Positions 5,532 through 31,638 are shown, counted from the first letter of the stretch. The stretch: DNA of 64,000 nt from Treponemataceae bacterium (GCA_963667725.2 CAXXHO010000003.1:576001-640000); one strand, 5' to 3'. The notes: generated from the sequence alone by a model not told the origin. Numbers and translations: made by a program.

Positions 5532-6599
5532 ATGAGTCCGACTAAATCCGAATTACGACGACGGCTGGACGGCGCTCGAGCCGCCAGAGCCGCTCGAGCC
5601 GCGCGCATCGCCCGAGCCGCGCGCGGCCGCAAACCCCTCAGCTTGAAAAGAGTCGCGGCATTCATCCTCAAGCTCGCGCTCATCGTCCATATCGCCTATA
5701 TCTTCCTTACAAGCGTCTTTATCATATCCTATAAATTCAACAATCCCGTCTTTACGATCCTCATGCCCTACCGATCGATCGGCTATGGATGGAAGCTTCA
5801 GAAGCCCATCCCCATCAAGCTCAAACAGGTGCCGGCCTACGTGCGGAACATGTTGGTGTCGGTAGAGGACGGCAAGTTCTATACCCACCACGGCATCGAC
5901 ATGGAAGCCTTCAAGCGCGCCAAGGAGATAAACGACAGGCTGGGCAAGCCCCTCTACGGCGGCTCGACACTGACGATGCAGCTGGCGAGGACGCTCTTCC
6001 TCGTGCCGGAAAAAAGCTACGTGAGAAAATATTTCGAGGTTATAGCGGCGCTCGAGCTGGAGCTCTTCCTCTCGAAAGACAGGATCCTGGAGCTTTATTT
6101 CGGCTACGCCGAGTGGGGAAAGGGCATTTTCGGCATAGAGGCGGCGGCGAGACACTGGTACGGAAAGGGCGTCGCCTCGCTCACGAGGGACCAGTCGGCC
6201 AGGCTCATCGCCCTCCTGTCCTCGCCCATCAAGTACTCGCCCACGACGCTGAACAAGTCGGCCATCCTGCGCGAGCGATACGCTTACCTGACGCGCCGCT
6301 ACGTTTCGCCCAGCCAGGCAACCTCGCCCGATCAGTCGCCAGCCCTCGCGCCGCCTCCCGGCGACGTCGTGCCCGGCGCCGACGATGCCGCGCCCTCCGA
6401 CACCCTCGCTCCGACCGATGCCCAAGCGCCCGTCGACGCTCTTGGGTCGCCCGATGAAGTCACCCCTCCCGGCGAAGTCGTGTCTGACGACGCTAGCCCG
6501 ACGAGCGATGCCCAGTCGGGCGGACAGGACAGCGCGGCAACCACGACGCTCCCCGCCGCCGACACCACGGCTCAGGGCGTCACAGGCGCCGTTCCTTAA
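5532..6599 (+). CDS. mtgA: Monofunctional peptidoglycan transglycosylase (GT51); start uncertain
   Basis: EDGKFYTHHG, GGSTLTMQLAR, RKYFE, SKDRILELY, GIFGIEAAA; one TM helix; low-complexity termini. Confidence 0.85.
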   Translation: MSPTKSELRRRLDGARAARAARAARIARAARGRKPLSLKRVAAFILKLALIVHIAYIFLTSVFIISYKFNNPVFTILMPYRSIGYGWKLQKPIPIKLKQVPAYVRNMLVSVEDGKFYTHHGIDMEAFKRAKEINDRLGKPLYGGSTLTMQLARTLFLVPEKSYVRKYFEVIAALELELFLSKDRILELYFGYAEWGKGIFGIEAAARHWYGKGVASLTRDQSARLIALLSSPIKYSPTTLNKSAILRERYAYLTRRYVSPSQATSPDQSPALAPPPGDVVPGADDAAPSDTLAPTDAQAPVDALGSPDEVTPPGEVVSDDASPTSDAQSGGQDSAATTTLPAADTTAQGVTGAVP

Positions 6600-23220: not shown

Positions 23221-24102
23221 CTAGCCATTCGGCTGAGCGTACTTCGCGCCGTCATTGACCCACGGAACAGCGATCATCCCACCTTCCAAACCCCACTTTG
23301 TGAGGATCTGCTCATAGGCTCCACTAGCCATCAGACGTTGCATAGCCTGTTCAATACAAAGTAGTAATGCAGGATTGTTTTTCGATATGCCAATGGCATT
23401 ATAACCCGCGCCATAAAGTGTCTTCAGAAGAACTGTAAGTCCTGTGTCCGCGTTGTGCTTTACATAGTAGTTCGACGTACCAGCCATGCTTAATGTCGCT
23501 TCCGCACGTCCTGATCTCACCGCAAGGTTCGCTTCATTCTGATTCGGGTAGACCTGAATGTCGATTTTCTTCACGTTCTTTTGATTGCGCTGTTCGACCA
23601 GCCCCTGCATAACACTTCCGCGGAGCACCGCTACTGAACGGCCATCAAGATCTTCAATCGTCTGGATATTCTTCGGATTACCCTCTTTGACAACGACCGC
23701 ATTGCCCTCAACTGAGTAGTTTACAAAGTTGATTTGTTGCTCACGAGCAGGAGTATCTCCCATACTTGAAATGGACATGTCAAAACGGCCCGCCAGGATA
23801 GCTGGGATGATTCCAGGAAAAGCTATGGCGGTAAATTCAACTTTGAGTCCGAGTACCTGGCCGATCCCAAGAGCCAAATCGATGTCTCCACCCGTAATCG
23901 TTTTATTGTCCTCTGCATACATCGTGTAGGGAGGCGATCCTGCACTGGTCGCTACTTTGAGGACTCCTGATTTCTGCAAGTCGGTAGGGAGTAGATCATG
24001 GAGGGCTTGATTAAACTTGACCTCGATAGCAGGGGTTGGAGCGGCGAACAAAAAAGCGTTCGCTACTACCATAAGCAGCATTACCATCACCACTCTTTTC
24101 AT
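23221..24102 (-). CDS. Polar amino acid ABC substrate-binding protein (SBP_bac_3)
   Basis: Signal peptide, PPY, G.DIDL, DT.AR, G.Y.QIL.KWG. Confidence 0.9.
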   Translation of the reverse strand: MKRVVMVMLLMVVANAFLFAAPTPAIEVKFNQALHDLLPTDLQKSGVLKVATSAGSPPYTMYAEDNKTITGGDIDLALGIGQVLGLKVEFTAIAFPGIIPAILAGRFDMSISSMGDTPAREQQINFVNYSVEGNAVVVKEGNPKNIQTIEDLDGRSVAVLRGSVMQGLVEQRNQKNVKKIDIQVYPNQNEANLAVRSGRAEATLSMAGTSNYYVKHNADTGLTVLLKTLYGAGYNAIGISKNNPALLLCIEQAMQRLMASGAYEQILTKWGLEGGMIAVPWVNDGAKYAQPNG

Positions 24103-24301
24103 GTCAAACCTCCTTAAATACGGAATACATTGTTTCTCTACGCTCCCTTTCTACTTGAGCGATAAACCCTGTATAAATCATGATTATCTATCTGTCAAGT
24201 ACAAAAAGTAGTTATTTTGCATTCAATTATCTTTTATTATTGCATACATCATACTTATATATTGCCTTTAATCTAAATTTATAGTATATAAACTAAAGAG
24301 T

Positions 24302-24988
24302 ATGGAAAAAATTAATGAAGCGGATTCGTCTAATCAACCTCTCACCAACAAGGCATACTTGTGTATAAAAGACCTAATCATGTCATACGCGCTCAAGCCT
24401 GGTGAGGTGCTCTCCGAGATCGAATTGGCACGGAAGCTTAAAATGAGCCGAACTCCAATCCATCAAGCATTGCTTCATCTTAAAAGAGATGGGTTTTTGG
24501 AAGATTCACCAGGAGTCGGATGGAAGGTCTACTCGTTATCGATTGCGGATATACGGGAAATTTTTGCCGCTAAAATCGCAATCGAAAATATCATCATGGA
24601 AGAGGCTGCTTTAAACAAGGACGCAAACAAGGAAGGTGTTCGGCATTGCTTGGAGCGGATGCAAGAGGCAGCCTCAGATAGAGACATCGACAGATGGATT
24701 AAACTCGATCACGAACTTCATGATAACATCAATGCATTGGCCAGCAATTCAAGAGCGGTCAGGATATCTGAAGGCCTGAGCGAGCAACTGTATCGGTTTC
24801 AAAGCCGATTCCCCCCGTTGGACTTGGCACAGCGTCAACGAGAGCATGTCACCATAGTCGACTGCATCTGCTCAGGGGATGCTGAAGGAGCGAAATTTAA
24901 CCATGCGAACAATCTCATTCAATTGTGTGAGGAGATAGAGTACATCCTTCGTAAGATGGTTTTTCCGTTGACAAATGACCTCGTATAA
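24302..24988 (+). CDS. GntR family regulator
   Basis: LKPGE.LSE.ELA...MSRTP HTH and FCD domain; divergent from the ABC operon. Confidence 0.9.
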   Translation: MEKINEADSSNQPLTNKAYLCIKDLIMSYALKPGEVLSEIELARKLKMSRTPIHQALLHLKRDGFLEDSPGVGWKVYSLSIADIREIFAAKIAIENIIMEEAALNKDANKEGVRHCLERMQEAASDRDIDRWIKLDHELHDNINALASNSRAVRISEGLSEQLYRFQSRFPPLDLAQRQREHVTIVDCICSGDAEGAKFNHANNLIQLCEEIEYILRKMVFPLTNDLV

Positions 24989-25097
24989 AGGTTTAGGTAT
25001 ATGGAGTTATGAAATAAATCCGATCTCTGGCTACTAGAGAATCAGCTAAATACAAAATTTTACATAAAATGTCTACTTAAGGCATGGCGGCTTGACG

Positions 25098-26144
25098 TTA
25101 TCGGGCATTTTTAATGGTTCCGATATTTATCTTGAATATCATGTTCCTTAAAAAAGAATTGTAGATAAAGAGTCCCTTGATGTTTTTCATGAAGATATTT
25201 ATCCGAAGGCCGAGGATGCCTCTGTCGTACTTCTTGATATCGAAGGCGGAGGCCTCTTGCAGCGTTTTGGCCAGCGTATAGGCGCTTCGATAGGCGTAGC
25301 TCAATCCTTCCGACGAGCTTGGGCTGATAAGTCCGGCGGCTTCGCCTATCAACGCGACGCCGCCCTGGCCGGTTTTTATGTCCCTCAATCGCGGGCGCAG
25401 CAGATAGCATGCGTCCAGCCTTACTGGATCCCCCAAGCTATAGCCGTATGAAACCACTTCCTCGATCAATTTTTTGTACTTCTGTTTGGCGTTATTCCTT
25501 TCGTCAAAGGCGCCTCCGACCAGAACGGTGTCGCCCTTCGGTATCAGCCAAGAGTAAAAATCGCTTATGCCCCGGTCGAAAAACACGGCATAGTGGTTGA
25601 TGGATGTTTCCAGCTTATATTCTCCCTGAATTGCCAGATACTTTCTTATTTTGTGAAAATCGTCGTAGAGAGCTTTCCTCACCGATGAATGGGCGCCATC
25701 GGCGCCCACCAGGACGCTGCATGAATGTTCCGCCACTTCTCCGTTTTGTCGTATGGATACGATGATTTCGCCATTCTCTTGCCTATGCCCTAAATACTGC
25801 CCCCCGGCCATGTGCTTCACGTTGCTGGGCAATTTCTTGATAAGGTATTGATCGAGAAGCCTTCTGTTTATATTGGTGTAATGTCTTTGGTATTTGCCCT
25901 CGCGATTGGTCTCAAGGTCGATGGACCTGACGTAGAAGAGCTGTGGATCGGATATTATTTCCTTGGGAATGCCAAGGTCGAAGCGCGCGAGCATTTTCTG
26001 CGCGTCGGGCGCCACAAGACCACCGCAGCATTTTTCACGATCCGTGCTTTTTTCCACGAGAAGTATATTTAGGTGTCGTTCCGCCAATCGCGCGAAAGTC
26101 GCGCCGGCAGGACCCGCGCCAATAATGATAATATCAAACATCAT
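25098..26144 (-). CDS. FAD-dependent oxidoreductase (CbrA/geranylgeranyl reductase family)
   Basis: IIGAGPAG, KCCGGL.APDAQK, VGADGAHSSVR, YSWLIPK, IGEAAGLISPSS.EG.SYA. Confidence 0.85.
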   Translation of the reverse strand: MMFDIIIIGAGPAGATFARLAERHLNILLVEKSTDREKCCGGLVAPDAQKMLARFDLGIPKEIISDPQLFYVRSIDLETNREGKYQRHYTNINRRLLDQYLIKKLPSNVKHMAGGQYLGHRQENGEIIVSIRQNGEVAEHSCSVLVGADGAHSSVRKALYDDFHKIRKYLAIQGEYKLETSINHYAVFFDRGISDFYSWLIPKGDTVLVGGAFDERNNAKQKYKKLIEEVVSYGYSLGDPVRLDACYLLRPRLRDIKTGQGGVALIGEAAGLISPSSSEGLSYAYRSAYTLAKTLQEASAFDIKKYDRGILGLRINIFMKNIKGLFIYNSFLRNMIFKINIGTIKNAR

Positions 26145-27508
26145 TTCAAGTACTCTATCGCCTTCTCATATACGGGATCGGTTCCGCTTTTCAGGTCCTC
26201 GATTGTTTCATAAACCCTGATATTGGGCAATATCGAAGCGCCTTCCTTGGCGAGCATTTCTTTATTGGCTCTTGCCCAGATATAGTGGGTTGTCGCGAAC
26301 TTTATTTTCGTATACGGCAAGGTGATAGGATCGGACATGAAACCATAGCGTATGGAACCGTTACCCACTTGATCGCCTATGATGATTCCCAAATCATTGT
26401 CTTTGATCGCGACGACGAAAAAAGTAGCCGAGCTGAATGTTTGACGACTCGTCAAAACCACGATTTTCCCCGTAAAGGAAAGTTCGCTGTTTTTAGGCAC
26501 CATAGGCCAAAGCCCTTTGGAAACTTGAACATTTCCATGCGGATAATTGGATTTCCAGCCATCGTAGACATAGAGATCCCTAGGCTTATCGATGATATAC
26601 GAAAGAAATTCATTGCACCAGAAGCTGTTTCCTCCGGAATTATTCCTTAGATCAAGAATAAGGGAGGCTGCTTTATTCTTTTGCGCGAAAGCGAATGCTT
26701 CATGCCAAAACTCAACATAGCCTGATTGAGGCAAAGAATTAAGCTGCACATACAAACTGTTCGAATCTGGAATAATGGCATACGTATTTCCGGGCTTTAT
26801 TTCAGTGGTATCGTTTCGGAATCTTGCCGGAATAGCGTATGCGCTTGAGGCAGAAGGGAAGGTACACCCTAAGGTAATATTCCTTTTCTCACCATTTTGC
26901 ACCACAGTAAGCTCAACTTCCTCTCTCTCGTTCATCAAGCCCAAGTGAAGAAGAAGGAAATTGGATAGCATCAGGTCAGGGCTATACATTTTCTTATAGT
27001 CATCCTGGCCTATATCCGCGGCTATAAACTGATTGGCGACTTTTTCGATATCTCCCACTAGCTTGCCGGATATGGCTACAATTTCTGAATACAGAATATC
27101 GGCGGCTGAGGGATCGGTAATAGAAGTAATCACAAGCTTTTTATTGAACCACCAAGCGCCAATACCCATAGATTTTCCAACCGATGTATTAATTCTCGTG
27201 TGTCCGTCTTGCAATGAAGTGATGAATGGAGCGATTTCGTAATAGAAATCAGAGGCATTACTGATATTCTTAAGCTTTTGCGCAGTCGTAGCGACTAGCT
27301 CGTCATAATCATGAAATGAAGTAGTCTGCAAGGGAGTCTTGTAAAAACCGGCATGGTTTTTACGAATGTAATCAGCAAGAATCAAGAAATCCTTCTGGTA
27401 AGGGTTTTCTGCATCAATTTCTTTTACGACATATGGATTTGACTTACAGGAAGATAAAATAACAAGCAGGACTATTAGAGAAAGAGTGATCCTTGATTGC
27501 ATTGGCAT
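26141..27508 (-). CDS. S41 family peptidase, lipoprotein
   Basis: Lipobox ILSSC, DGHT, LDLRNNSGG, TFSSA; GGAGGA RBS. Confidence 0.85.
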   Translation of the reverse strand: MPMQSRITLSLIVLLVILSSCKSNPYVVKEIDAENPYQKDFLILADYIRKNHAGFYKTPLQTTSFHDYDELVATTAQKLKNISNASDFYYEIAPFITSLQDGHTRINTSVGKSMGIGAWWFNKKLVITSITDPSAADILYSEIVAISGKLVGDIEKVANQFIAADIGQDDYKKMYSPDLMLSNFLLLHLGLMNEREEVELTVVQNGEKRNITLGCTFPSASSAYAIPARFRNDTTEIKPGNTYAIIPDSNSLYVQLNSLPQSGYVEFWHEAFAFAQKNKAASLILDLRNNSGGNSFWCNEFLSYIIDKPRDLYVYDGWKSNYPHGNVQVSKGLWPMVPKNSELSFTGKIVVLTSRQTFSSATFFVVAIKDNDLGIIIGDQVGNGSIRYGFMSDPITLPYTKIKFATTHYIWARANKEMLAKEGASILPNIRVYETIEDLKSGTDPVYEKAIEYLK

Positions 27509-27522
27509 TATTCCTCCAATTT

Positions 27523-27582
27523 TCTTAGCTACTATTTAACCTGCGAAGCTACAGACTGAGTTAGGTTAAGTCATGGTTAGGC
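27523..27582 (-). mobile_element. Degenerate short attC site (60 bp)
   Basis: Minus strand GCCTAAC-CATGA-CTTAACC...GCAGGTTAAA-TAGTA-GCTAAGA; shares TTAACCTGCGAAGC with the long attC. Confidence 0.7.
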
Positions 27583-27884
27583 TGCTCAAGATAATCAACC
27601 GATTTACCCATGCGAAGTGCATAATCAATCTCGCTTCTTGTTGACGATCCAATATACCCACCGACGTTTATAACGAAAACACCGTCAGCCATGTCGATTT
27701 TACGCTTATGCATATCATCAAGCATGATCTTTTGTTCGTCATTTATTGTGTCGCCGGAGTGCCCGAAAAGTCCGACAGACACAACTATGACACCGTCAAG
27801 CGTTAATCTCTTCTGTTGTTCAATAAATTGTTCTTTAAAGCGTGTACTTCCGCAAAGCGTTATGATTTTATATTTTCCAATCAT
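27561..27884 (-). CDS. Small cassette protein, probable nucleoside deoxyribosyltransferase-like fold
   Basis: ITLCGSTRF, H.RKIDMAD...VINVGGYIGSST.SEI.YA; bounded by GTTAGGC and GCCTAAC. Confidence 0.7.
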   Translation of the reverse strand: MIGKYKIITLCGSTRFKEQFIEQQKRLTLDGVIVVSVGLFGHSGDTINDEQKIMLDDMHKRKIDMADGVFVINVGGYIGSSTRSEIDYALRMGKSVDYLEQPNHDLT

Positions 27885-27943
27885 TTTTTTTCCTTTACGA
27901 GTTATCCGAGCTTTTGCTGTATGCGAAACGTGGCAGAGCGTCC

Positions 27944-28056
27944 GCCTAACATTGGCTTAACCTGCGAAGCGTAATGGCGCGATTCTTGCCGAGGAGCGTA
28001 GCGACGACTAACAAGAATCGTGACATAGCTGAGTCAGGTTGAAGCAGTTGTTAGAA
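27944..28056 (-). mobile_element. Integron attC site (113 bp)
   Basis: Minus strand R'' TTCTAAC, L'' CTTCAACC (extra base), stem CGATTCTTG/CAAGAATCG, L' GGTTAAG, R' GTTAGGC; begins a few nt after the upstream stop codon. Confidence 0.9.
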
Positions 28057-28059
28057 AGA

Positions 28060-29862
28060 TCATACTATTTTCATAAATAATTGTAAAATATCTAACGAAA
28101 GATGCTCTGGGAAATCGTTAATTACAGTATCAATAATATAATTTTTTAATATATTGTCCTCAGTTTTCCCTTTTTTAATTCTATTCAATTCTGGTATTTT
28201 TGTAACAATATATTCTTCTAAATCATGACCTTTCATAGAAAACCATTGACTAGGAACACTATAACTAGAGTGGTTTATTGTTTCATATCTAGTCATATCC
28301 TTTATATCGATATTTATAGTCGTCATTAAATAATTAATGGCATTTTGCATATCTTCTACTGCGATTCTTTTGCAATCAACATAATTATTTATATTCGATA
28401 ATCCAAAATCTGATGGCTTTTTAATATTTTCTCTAAGAAGTAATAAAAAAAGATATATTGGATCAAAAATATAATTTTCGATCGAATATCTATTATTTTC
28501 TCCTAAGACTTTAATATAAACGCTTTCAGTATTTTTTAAATCCCAATCAATTATACCGTATATTAAATCATTTCCTAATTCCCTAAGTTTTGTTACAATA
28601 TCTATAACATCTGTACAATTCGTTCCCAATCGGCTATGCGGTGGAATAAATTGCAGATGGACACTAGTATCACTTTTAACGATTCTGTATATCTTTTCAT
28701 AATATTCTACGTCATAATTATTCTCAACAAATATCTGGCGTCTTCTCTCAATATTAATACGCAGGTTTCTGATCTCACTAGTTAATATCCTAATTGCATT
28801 TTCATGATTAGATTTTATTGGTTTCTTAAGCGACTTATCCATTTCATAAATATATATACCATCTGCTACTGCAACGGTTGTTGGTGAATGTGTTGTAATA
28901 ATAACACTTACACCAGCACGTTTATATATATATTCATTTAATGATTCTATCAGTAATCTTGAAAACTCTGGATGCAAACCGGCATCTGGTTCATCAAGTA
29001 AAAGTAAATCTAATTTTGCTCCTGTCTCCGTAGCATTGTATATTGCCAGCGCTAAGGACATTAAAACTTTTTCTCCCGTTGATAAGTCATTTACTTGAAT
29101 TGATAATCCGGATTCTGGGTTGTTAAGCTTCAAGGTAAATTCCGACTCTTTATTTTGTGATAGAGGATCATTAACAATATAAGGAAGTTTTGCATTTCTT
29201 AATATTTCATTTATTAGATCCCATGGTTTAGGTCCATAAATTACAATAAACTCCTCATCCGATAATACATTATTTGTTTCGCCATATTCTTTATTCTTAA
29301 ACAATTGATATCTATTGTCTTCAAGTCGCGTGTGATATGCTTTGAAAACTGTAGCAAATTGACTTGCAAACATTTCTTCTGGAACAAGAGTATTAAAATC
29401 AAAATATTTACGGAATAAGTCTTCTGTCTGCTCTTCTACTGATAAATGTGATTTTTCTAAAACAGCTTTTATTGCTCTTTTATGATTTGCATCGCCTATA
29501 TGGTTCATCAGCCACTCTATCTCATTTTGCCCTTGTGGAAGCTGTCCTTGTTTCTTTTTCAGTAAATAACTATCTCTTACTGGACTAAACTGATTCCATA
29601 TATTTTTTACATGATTAATGATTGTGTTATATTCACATTTTGAATCAACATTTGGATTCAATCCATTAAATGGTATATACTTAATTTTGCTTGCTTTCTT
29701 CCCATCGACAATCACAGTTGTTTTACTTTCTTGTACTAGTGATTCTAATAAATGGCTTTTGCCCGCACCGTTCTTTCCTGTTAAGATACAAAAGTTTGGT
29801 AATTGAACATCCACACCTACTGGAATAGACTTATGTTCTTTTTTAACAATAATATTTATCAT
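28060..29862 (-). CDS. ABC-type ATPase fused to a TOPRIM-like domain (OLD-like), cassette-borne
   Basis: Walker A GKNGAGKS, signature LSTGEK, Walker B LLLLDEPD, TTHS; C-terminal IFVE...D, GIIDWD, SIENY; very AT-rich. Confidence 0.85.
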   Translation of the reverse strand: MINIIVKKEHKSIPVGVDVQLPNFCILTGKNGAGKSHLLESLVQESKTTVIVDGKKASKIKYIPFNGLNPNVDSKCEYNTIINHVKNIWNQFSPVRDSYLLKKKQGQLPQGQNEIEWLMNHIGDANHKRAIKAVLEKSHLSVEEQTEDLFRKYFDFNTLVPEEMFASQFATVFKAYHTRLEDNRYQLFKNKEYGETNNVLSDEEFIVIYGPKPWDLINEILRNAKLPYIVNDPLSQNKESEFTLKLNNPESGLSIQVNDLSTGEKVLMSLALAIYNATETGAKLDLLLLDEPDAGLHPEFSRLLIESLNEYIYKRAGVSVIITTHSPTTVAVADGIYIYEMDKSLKKPIKSNHENAIRILTSEIRNLRINIERRRQIFVENNYDVEYYEKIYRIVKSDTSVHLQFIPPHSRLGTNCTDVIDIVTKLRELGNDLIYGIIDWDLKNTESVYIKVLGENNRYSIENYIFDPIYLFLLLLRENIKKPSDFGLSNINNYVDCKRIAVEDMQNAINYLMTTINIDIKDMTRYETINHSSYSVPSQWFSMKGHDLEEYIVTKIPELNRIKKGKTEDNILKNYIIDTVINDFPEHLSLDILQLFMKIV

Positions 29863-29882
29863 AAAACTTCTCCCGTTTTGAT

Positions 29883-29903
29883 TCTTTCTAACAATAGTTA
29901 TAA
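29883..29903 (-). mobile_element. Cassette 5' core site, attI-like or secondary site
   Basis: Minus strand TTATAAC-TATT-GTTAGAAAGA; GTTAGAAAGA is the exact complement of the cassette's R'' end TCTTTCTAAC. Confidence 0.65.
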
Positions 29904-29920
29904 AGGTCTATCCTATAAGT

Positions 29921-30385
29921 TCATCTTCTTAATCCTTGATCCATATTCTTTAGCATCACCAGCGCCCTATCCAACCCATCTGCAAACAGTTTAGTTTCTT
30001 TGACCGTCCTATGTGACCCTTTTGGTGAAGATGGCACAATGCCCAAAAATCGAAGCTCTTCAGCTGCATCCCGTAGCGAACGGCGTTCGGAGGCGTTTTC
30101 TTTGGTGTAGAGCTCGCCGCGGTCGTTGATTACGGCAATGCCGGATTCCGCGAGGCGCTCGGCGAAGGGAATGTCGCGGGTGACGACGAGGTCGCCCAAC
30201 GCGGCATTCGCTTCGATAAAATGGTCGGCGGCGTCGGGTCCCGCTGGTACGAGGGTTGCGAGAGCGGGGGGCACGTCGGGAAGCTTGCGGGCAGAGACGA
30301 AGCGCACGGGGATGTTTGCGCCACGGCGCACGAGGATAGGGCGGATGTCGCGCGGGGCGCTGTCCCCATCCACCCAGATCGTCAT
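29921..30385 (-). CDS. yaiI: YaiI/YqxD (DUF188) family protein
   Basis: IWVDGD..P, DAADHFI, GDLVVTRDIPFA, RGELYT. Confidence 0.85.
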   Translation of the reverse strand: MTIWVDGDSAPRDIRPILVRRGANIPVRFVSARKLPDVPPALATLVPAGPDAADHFIEANAALGDLVVTRDIPFAERLAESGIAVINDRGELYTKENASERRSLRDAAEELRFLGIVPSSPKGSHRTVKETKLFADGLDRALVMLKNMDQGLRR

Positions 30386-31638
30386 GGCGCCGCCTCGGGA
30401 TCTAAATGAGAGGAAGCGAGGGAGCCTACGCGAGCGCGATAGACCGTGCACGGACCGCGCAGGGAATAGGATTTGCAGGCCGCGCCTACGAAGACGGATT
30501 CGCCTCGCTTGAGGGCGATGGATGGATTGGCGCCGGAAGCGCAGTCGATGGTGGCCTGGCCCGCGGTGCAAAGAAGAATTTCGGGGCCGGAAGGCTTCAC
30601 TTCGGCGTGTTTCTGGTCGGAAAGATCGAAACGAGAGAGGGCGAATTCGCGAGCCGGCGTAGGCCAGAAAACCTCGCGCGCGCCGGAAATACCGGCGACG
30701 GGCTCGATGAGCGTAGGCTCGGCCTTGAAATCGAGGGTGCCGAGGAGATCGTCAACATCGACATGCTTGTGTGTGAGCCCGCCCCGGATCACGTTGTCTG
30801 AAGTGGCCATAATCTCGAGAATCGTGCCCTTCAGATACGCGTGCATGACGCCCGCGGGAATATAGATGCCCTGCCCGGGCTCGAGAAAAAGCACGTTCAT
30901 GAAAAGCGGGGAAATCGCCCCCGGATCGTGTGGATAGTGCTGAAAGCACATAAGGACGGTTTGTCCGGCGATCCTCGCGCCCTCGTCCTCACTCTTCGCG
31001 AGATCCCGCGCGCGGGAAGTCGCTTTGATTTCGAGCAACGTCCTTTCCTTATCGCGCAGGGCGAGGGCCTTCCCCAGAAGCCCGCGCAGCGAGGCCTCAG
31101 AGTCGAGGGCAGAAAAACCGAAATACCCGCAAAGCTCGGGACCCAGCATTTCCGCGGCCTCGCCCGCGCTCCTAAAACCGCAGAGCGCCGAAAAGGGCGA
31201 GAGGGCGACCGCCAGCTCGGGCTTGTGGTTCCTGTCCTTGTAGTCGCGCTCGGGCGCCGATCGCGGCAGGCCGCGTTTTTCCTCGCGCTCGAAACCGATC
31301 GCGGCGCGCGCCTTGTCAGGATGCACCTGAATGGAGAGGGGCATCGAGGCGGAAAGCGCCTTGAAAAGGAAGGGCAGGTCGTCGAACTCGGCGAAAACCT
31401 CCTCGCCGAGACTCTTCATCGGATTGTCGTGGATGTACTTCGGGAGGGGGAGAGCCTTGCCGTCGGGCAGTAGCAGAGAGGAGGGAGCGTCCGGATGCGA
31501 GCCCATCCAGCATTCGGCCGAAGGCTTCCCTGAGTCGGTGACGACGCCGGCGTAGAGGGAAAGTCCGTTATAGCTCCCCCACGCGTAGTTGCGTATCGTG
31601 TTTTCGAGCTTGAAAACGGGGGCCGAGGTATCTTTCAT
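30382..31638 (-). CDS. manA: Mannose-6-phosphate isomerase, class I
   Basis: YAWGS, AECWMGSHP, PLSIQVHP, YKD.NHKPE, HAYL.G, SDNVIRGGLT.KH. Confidence 0.95.
   Translation of the reverse strand: MKDTSAPVFKLENTIRNYAWGSYNGLSLYAGVVTDSGKPSAECWMGSHPDAPSSLLLPDGKALPLPKYIHDNPMKSLGEEVFAEFDDLPFLFKALSASMPLSIQVHPDKARAAIGFEREEKRGLPRSAPERDYKDRNHKPELAVALSPFSALCGFRSAGEAAEMLGPELCGYFGFSALDSEASLRGLLGKALALRDKERTLLEIKATSRARDLAKSEDEGARIAGQTVLMCFQHYPHDPGAISPLFMNVLFLEPGQGIYIPAGVMHAYLKGTILEIMATSDNVIRGGLTHKHVDVDDLLGTLDFKAEPTLIEPVAGISGAREVFWPTPAREFALSRFDLSDQKHAEVKPSGPEILLCTAGQATIDCASGANPSIALKRGESVFVGAACKSYSLRGPCTVYRARVGSLASSHLDPEAAP

Follow-up and report, generated by a model that had tools for sequence, protein, structure and literature searches.

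CALINs, cassette arrays without a nearby integrase gene, outnumber complete integrons. Whether such arrays are dead relics or still receive cassettes is a standing question, partly because attI is not searchable outside the clinical classes. The integron integrase, IntI, excises cassettes by attC x attC recombination and inserts them at attI between G and TT, and the first cassette is the best expressed, according to the available text of two papers (PMC4889954; 10.1101/2024.07.02.601686). Mobilisation of CALINs in trans is mentioned in the part available of a third (PMC9668308).

The surveys of CALINs and SALINs (PMC4889954; 10.1101/2022.09.11.507474) describe, in the text available, attC cassettes with no nearby intI in genomes which encode IntI elsewhere, and mobilisation in trans is proposed; a search for attI was possible there only within classes 1–3, and CALINs are treated mainly as remnants, donors or one-off insertions. 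In the accessible portion of Qi et al. 2023 (PMC9892861) the CALIN of Shewanella prophage M16-3 is an integrase-less array starting with a host-type attI; it is a single array in a cryptic prophage, with a complete integron next to it. CALINs of Xanthomonas by lamG, secF and recD (10.1101/2025.06.18.660453) occupy conserved chromosomal positions away from the intI locus and are regarded as vestiges of ancestral activity; the text available describes neither an attI head nor turnover at the first position. In Treponema-type chromosomal integrons intI points towards the array (Wu et al. 2013, PMC3607928, available text), as it does elsewhere in the genome studied here, and an earlier note on this DNA had named Treponema integrons as known. 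Darracq et al. (10.1101/2024.07.02.601686, available portion) report anti-phage systems as cassettes of sedentary integrons, working when first at attI.

The array which lies just after yaiI in a Treponemataceae genome shares with the surveyed CALINs its attC cassettes, the lack of a nearby intI and the presence of IntI elsewhere in the genome; it differs from them, as far as described, in a cognate attI-like head and in repeated gain at one base across strains. Unlike the M16-3 array it is chromosomal, is on a contig other than that of any intI, and is part of an allele series across the genus. Compared with the Treponema integrons it has neither intI nor the spacer of roughly 160–175 bp, and yaiI stands in the place of intI. 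In contrast to what Darracq et al. describe, the defence-like, longer cassettes are concentrated here in small integrase-less arrays and not in the sampled large ones. CALINs, one attI-headed prophage CALIN and the fixed-position CALINs of Xanthomonas are thus known; what appears to be less described, and this is well supported by comparison, is a conserved putative solo attI gaining new cassettes. The literature searched, mostly without subscription papers, held no description of an integrase-free chromosomal attI at which the first cassette changes from strain to strain. We suggest that the yaiI site is probably such a solo attI, a lasting additional loading point with no integrase in cis, often occupied by predicted anti-phage genes and repeatedly loaded in trans by IntI encoded elsewhere, an activity which we infer from sequence comparison.

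Organization of the locus

The window, that is, the whole 64-kb stretch of DNA analysed, is part of contig C3. The minus-strand order is dinG-like helicase, manA, yaiI, spacer, ATPase gene, attC1, 107-aa gene, attC2 and S41 peptidase gene, and the features of interest are as follows.

29921..30385, minus strand: yaiI/yqxD (DUF188) gene, the fixed upstream anchor and last of the dinG-manA-yaiI run (Pfam PF02639, E 1.8e-21)
29890..29908, minus strand: attI-like core of 19 bp, crossover G at 29892 (matrix score, likeness to integrase-linked attI, nine alleles)
27950..29891, minus strand: cassette 1, about 1.94 kb (10/10 complementary ends, precise absence in G001)
28060..29862, minus strand: gene for an ABC-type ATPase of 600 aa whose C-terminal region is predicted to be TOPRIM-like (Pfam AAA_21, AAA_15; PADLOC)
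27944..28056, minus strand: attC1, canonical, of the same family as the genome's large arrays (fold, covariance model)
27529..27949, minus strand: cassette 2, about 0.42 kb (complementary ends, leader motif, same cassette in relatives)
27561..27884, minus strand: 107-aa gene of no assigned family (74% identical paralogue in the C1 integron array)
27523..27582, minus strand: attC2, a decayed 60-bp site with an internal deletion and a changed R' (copies in relatives)
26141..27508, minus strand: S41 peptidase lipoprotein gene (PF03572)

The yaiI gene, present in 66 of 69 family genomes, has its stop at 29921, and a 29-nt spacer precedes GTTAGAAAGA, which starts at 29892. The G+C content is 59–62% in yaiI, manA and dinG, falling to 30% in the ATPase gene and 40% in the 107-aa gene, as expected from the sharp shift in base composition which the earlier note had claimed. 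Its claim that the window lacks a tyrosine recombinase also agrees with our search: no PF00589 match was found within the 64 kb, the nearest being at C3:532993, about 72 kb from the site, and no similarity to IntI was detected at E<=1 in the window or in 15 yaiI loci. The housekeeping context which had been described stands on the right side only. On the left, about 23 kb of the window are a variable island starting at the cassette site, since in more distant genomes yaiI is followed by other genes, in some by one for an NAD-epimerase and in others by the ancestral convergent neighbour (window 5532–6599). An Rfam scan of positions 24000–31000 gave no match.

attC sites and cassette boundaries

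A covariance model trained on 28 attC sites from the genome's own integrase-linked arrays found attC1 (86.7 bits, E 5.8e-18) and, at E 0.61, attC2, and nothing else across the whole window. The R'' box of attC1 begins 3 nt past the ATPase stop codon (28060). The site possesses R''/R' and L''/L' inverted boxes and an extra-helical base, and its folded bottom strand is a long hairpin whose L arm holds the unpaired base (-22.2 kcal/mol, z -3.17), which one of 200 shuffles equalled. The earlier note had read a canonical attC at 27944–28056, with R'' by the stop codon and extra unpaired bases in the left arm, and had named the lack of a covariance-model hit as evidence against its reading; a hit falls at exactly this position.

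The second site is far poorer. With 14.3 bits it has no extra base in L'', its R' is GCTAAGA, and its fold is no better than those of shuffles. The same short site is present in contigs C28 and C4 of G002, R' being intact (GTTAAGA) in C4 only, and by this comparison with relatives attC2 is shown to descend from an attC. CALINs are defined by at least two attC; here there are one strong and one decayed site with no intI nearby, and because attC2 is decayed a strict program might count only one. The idea that attC2 is a special invertible short symmetric site was dropped, decay being the best reading, with similar internal deletions in other terminal attC. Short attC2-like sites with the central stem deleted occur, mostly at array ends, at C3:2196016–2196071, C3:1635378 and L031 12111–12176. 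A separate observation is that the same insertion-sequence end interrupts several attC at a similar point (C3:522259, C5:399919, 432295, 458031 and 460060; L132).

The ends of cassette 1, GTTAGAAAGA (29892–29883) and TCTTTCTAAC (28059–28050), are complementary at 10 of 10 positions, and those of cassette 2 at 7/7 on the core and 8/10 overall, in keeping with the complementary ends (10 of 10 and GTTAGGC/GCCTAAC) noticed previously. Cassette 2 carries a leader motif which was seen, by eye and then by pattern, after 104 of the genome's 177 attC sites; the cassette itself is also found in G002 C28 and C4 and, truncated, in G001. The marks of integron gene cassettes are thus present: a single gene running from TTRRRY to attC, complementary ends, and precise presence or absence. 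A raw-read run had no reads covering the stretch, and rare excisions would not be visible in contigs; one run is probably the source of this DNA. Three read joints were listed; their sides are short, and the joints come from other attC copies.

Genes in and beside the cassettes

The cassette 1 product matches the PADLOC profiles ATPase-Toprim_I-B (E 1.5e-23) and AriAB (E 1.6e-22); its C-terminal part alone gives only a weak AriAB match (E 1.8e-5), while the acidic motif columns are invariant across 80 homologues. A single-sequence structure model (pLDDT 34) was unusable. The protein resembles PARIS AriAB and ATPase-Toprim defence proteins, and an anti-phage role is predicted. Neither it nor the seven cassette proteins of relatives which were tested had a match elsewhere in the genome.

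The 107-aa protein had no match in Pfam, NCBIfam, PADLOC or PHROGs and shows a weak likeness to small Rossmann proteins of the DUF4406/DUF1937 type, in atlas leads of good but not full confidence only. Its C1 paralogue was rejected as direct donor of cassette 2, the DNA being 71% identical and the flanks different. In contig C13 of G002 there is a full attC (86.9 bits) before the S41 gene and a remnant of an attC left arm after it, which suggests that the S41 gene is probably an older, domesticated cassette. In G002 C4 (L033 11681–18657) a 6.8-kb transporter/oxidoreductase block, bordered by a duplicated S41 3' end, lies between S41 and a gene for an FAD-dependent oxidoreductase.

The attI-like core after yaiI

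The array is headed by its own attI-like core just after yaiI, as matrix scoring shows; the earlier reading had missed it. Of 32 integrase loci, 21 allowed an attI call, 159–176 nt past the stop codon, and these gave 13 distinct 19-mers for a matrix; these 13 sequences are related, and the pattern used to choose them fixed part of the proximal half. The core in the window is identical to an integrase-linked attI at 15 of 19 positions and belongs to the top 0.05% of the genome's 156,227 GTW sites. It is among the weaker alleles, its score being 5.2 and about 76 genome sites scoring as well. All nine cores found after yaiI in this genome and its relatives rank within the top 0.003–0.13% of the GTW sites and the top 0.03–0.55% of the AT-rich ones; their identity to the nearest true attI is 13–18 of 19, one allele reaching 18. 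Over the eight distal positions, which were not used for choosing the training sites, all nine alleles are in the top 0.3–4.8% of AT-rich sites. There is, then, a core like the cognate integrase-linked attI with a G/TT crossover at the array head. It has no adjoining intI, unlike the attI of a complete sedentary integron. The roughly 150 bp upstream of true attI in three intI-attI spacers do not match the yaiI spacer, so accessory binding sites may be absent here.

Core position -9 is C in 13/13 integrase-linked attI and A in eight of the nine yaiI alleles. The A recurs in three other heads (C3:352231, L258 and L259) and gives a TATAAT-like hexamer, which matches at 5–6 of 6 positions in all nine alleles. 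No -35 or extended -10 accompanies this box, and a promoter scan gave no consensus promoter at the site; its promoter-like matches (19 against 10.6 expected) fall nearly all inside the AT-rich ATPase gene. No terminator-like site was detected between yaiI and the cassettes.

In two outgroup loci, L133 and L054, the spacers just after yaiI have in common a 12-bp stretch which resembles the left half of the core and lacks GTT. This may be either a decayed attI or a proto-site.

Alleles of the site in relatives

Forty-eight distinct yaiI loci at >=45% identity were compared, the core being judged by eye. An AT-rich core with GTT or GTA at its end, 24–48 nt past the yaiI stop and followed by unrelated DNA, is present in 8/8 loci at >=84% identity and in one of the 40 below this value, that of G017, from another genus. 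The nine alleles are those of the window, G001, three contigs of G002, three metagenome contigs and G017, the genomes G001 and G002 being congeneric with the window; they are not independent, as three come from one mixed assembly, G002, evidently a mixture of strains. Counted from the yaiI start, the crossover G lies 493 nt away in all seven genus alleles which include the start and 472 nt away in G017. The alleles are on average 75% identical over the 16 nt leading up to the G, 51% over the 16 nt preceding these and 33% beyond R', and 7 of 16 core positions are invariant compared with 0–1 of 16 just upstream.

These figures bear on the idea that the site is an ordinary attG hot spot, that is, an AT-rich GTT spacer hit by chance with no attI-type structure under selection. 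IntI inserts at many GWT sites, some used as efficiently as attI (10.1101/2022.09.11.507474, available text), and the yaiI site is AT-rich. However, attG sites are described in the same text as unlike attI, whereas the yaiI cores, besides having GTT and an attI-like left half, match cognate attI against an AT-rich background with the distal half included; the invariant core positions, too, would not be expected of a chance target. We consider the hot spot very unlikely.

A different first cassette is found in each of the nine alleles:

Window: ATPase-TOPRIM-like protein
Relatives, one allele each: a 371-aa protein with a TIR-type effector match; DUF4145; a 1086-aa NACHT protein; an unrelated 490-aa ATPase; a short gene-less cassette; a two-gene cassette
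G001: truncated cassette 2
G017: a cassette-type leader, the contig ending before any attC

In the six relatives with a visible first attC, R'' matches the cassette start at 7–9 of 10 positions. In G001 cassette 2 stands directly at the same G, cassette 1 being precisely absent. The earlier note had called for this comparison, holding that an identical gene arrangement across relatives would speak against its reading; no relative has the same arrangement as the window. An empty allele with GTT was not seen, and in all nine alleles cassette DNA takes up the right half of the site, where attG hot spots have a CRGM motif.

One might suppose that an attI fragment and the first cassettes were excised together from a large array, as a delta-attI-type unit, and dropped once after yaiI. 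Cassettes bounded by a truncated attI do recombine with IntI1 (PMC12901181, available part), and an extra attI-like head lies inside the C3:1635–1654k cluster. A single drop does not yield nine different first cassettes, though, and the sequence upstream of the core is, as noted above, unlike all three integrase-linked spacers. As an explanation this is highly improbable; such a transplant could still be how the core first arrived.

A more serious rival to a solo attI loaded in trans is that a complete integron after yaiI lost its intI long ago, leaving frozen ancient alleles which move by homologous recombination. Loss of intI is a recognised route to CALINs (PMC4889954, available text). The last 150 bp of yaiI and the spacer are only 71–81% identical among strains, most of manA being 91–100% identical, and this raised divergence fits the swapping of old alleles by homologous recombination as well as fresh insertion. 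Several arrays are decaying (that of G001 is truncated and attC2 of the window is broken), the distal island genes are common to another genus, and the outgroups L133 and G046 carry the look-alike of the left half of the core without GTT. Against this, no trace of intI is present near yaiI, nor is yaiI or manA within 1.5 kb of any of the 32 integrase loci, and conservation is higher in the core than immediately before it. Moreover, attC at the first position are near-intact (80–97 bits in four relatives, 87 in the window), the distal ones being mostly weak or broken, which is the pattern expected if cassettes enter, and are still arriving, at the yaiI end. We regard a fossil integron as rather unlikely, and a solo attI supplied from elsewhere as the better account.

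Integrases and large arrays in the genome

A profile search of the whole genome identified three IntI over the TIGR02249 cut-off, on contigs C1, C5 and C7, each gene preceding a large array with which it is co-oriented. With a strict attC pattern 177 sites were counted: 35 on C1, 111 on C5, 23 on C7 and eight on C3, the contig of the window. Integrases elsewhere in the genome and attC of the same family in this number support the earlier proposal that the cassettes were delivered in trans without a neighbouring integrase. IntI over the cut-off is encoded in 39 of 69 family genomes, G001 and G017 included; none was found in the G002 assembly, which is 92% complete.

In L001 (C7) and L002 (C1) the gene before intI is the same alcohol-dehydrogenase-like one, and the two intI genes have 93% identity across the catalytic part; as assembly contamination is 6.3% they may be strain haplotypes. 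Four further loci, L254–L257, encode divergent TIGR02249-positive integrases, about 48–51% identical to the C7 IntI; they gave no downstream attI call and have a conserved non-coding stretch in common.

Other integrase-less arrays and their defence content

Five other integrase-less array heads on C3 rank 4, 5, 7, 13 and 15 of the 156,227 sites, behind three true attI, and one decayed cluster near C3:503k has no attI-like head. Among five G002 regions, two heads score 10.2 and 7.4, one region is the orthologue of the headless cluster, and two are orthologues of C3:2195417, which score under 3 and have the same aligned core with different first cassettes. C3:2195417 is a second fixed site; together with L260 and L262 it presents three alleles with three different first cassettes. 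Its neighbours, named by eye, are a divergent DUF72-like gene on one side and an M48-like gene on the other.

The heads at C3:352231, 518927, 1641048 and 1654064 (L264, L265, L009 and L266) have a common 18-bp motif 250–450 bp upstream and are near other tyrosine recombinases, repressor-like genes or a type I restriction locus. These four arrays may be integrative elements with a common leader plus attI.

At PADLOC E<=1e-15, 17 of 43 genes of the other integrase-less arrays had matches compared with 3 of 83 genes of integrase-linked arrays (4/83 at 1e-10), the former set omitting one 89-aa ORF of 44 and the latter comprising all C1 and C7 ORFs which passed the filter and only 19 kb of about 150 kb on C5. 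Two matches in each set are to a generic methyltransferase. In the yaiI arrays three of 11 genes matched at 1e-15 and six at 1e-3, one being Shedu (E 1e-144). The genes of integrase-less arrays are longer (medians 257 and 298 vs 165 aa), and since in addition domain matches are not function and the genes are not independent, the contrast in defence content is only a tendency and its Fisher values are overstated. Multi-gene defence systems seen as cassettes (L264, L265, L258 and L259) comprise Hachiman HamAB, DUF4297-HerA, PDC-M19AB and a UG17 reverse transcriptase, and also a broken UG9 reverse transcriptase with a PolA-like partner.

Discussion

The solo attI which we favour would work as follows. 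IntI made at the large arrays would excise cassettes as circles and recombine their folded attC with the double-stranded yaiI core at G/TT. The new cassette would enter beside yaiI, pushing older ones away, and distal attC would decay by deletion, locking in genes such as that of the S41 peptidase. First cassettes, being promoterless, would be read through from the dinG-manA-yaiI transcript, as their co-orientation and the lack of a terminator-like site suggest. Read-through would make this an extra expression slot, and large, defence-like cassettes might be kept there for that reason. The core itself would be either a relic of an integrase lost long ago or the product of evolution from a secondary site.

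A broader and more tentative reading is that the integron is distributed in this genus, a few integrase-linked superintegrons serving as a silent store and integrase-free attI cores at fixed addresses as selected parallel expression slots, loaded in trans mostly with large anti-phage cassettes. Its addresses, held with the same reserve, would be the site after yaiI, the DUF72 locus and the integrative elements. To this reading also belongs the speculation, possible but doubtful, that the C-to-A shift which creates TATAAT from the left box of the core at many of these sites would let the docking site double as a promoter.

As to whether CALINs are remnants or recipients, the orthologous allele series, with one base, nine first cassettes and no integrase in cis, points to a live recipient. 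The method offered here, an attI matrix trained on the family's integrase-linked sites and then used for scoring the heads of CALINs, addresses the difficulty of finding attI beyond the clinical classes. If our reading is true, the integron has more than one first position, and solo attI sites would be compact hunting grounds for new defence genes, the unassigned cassettes included.
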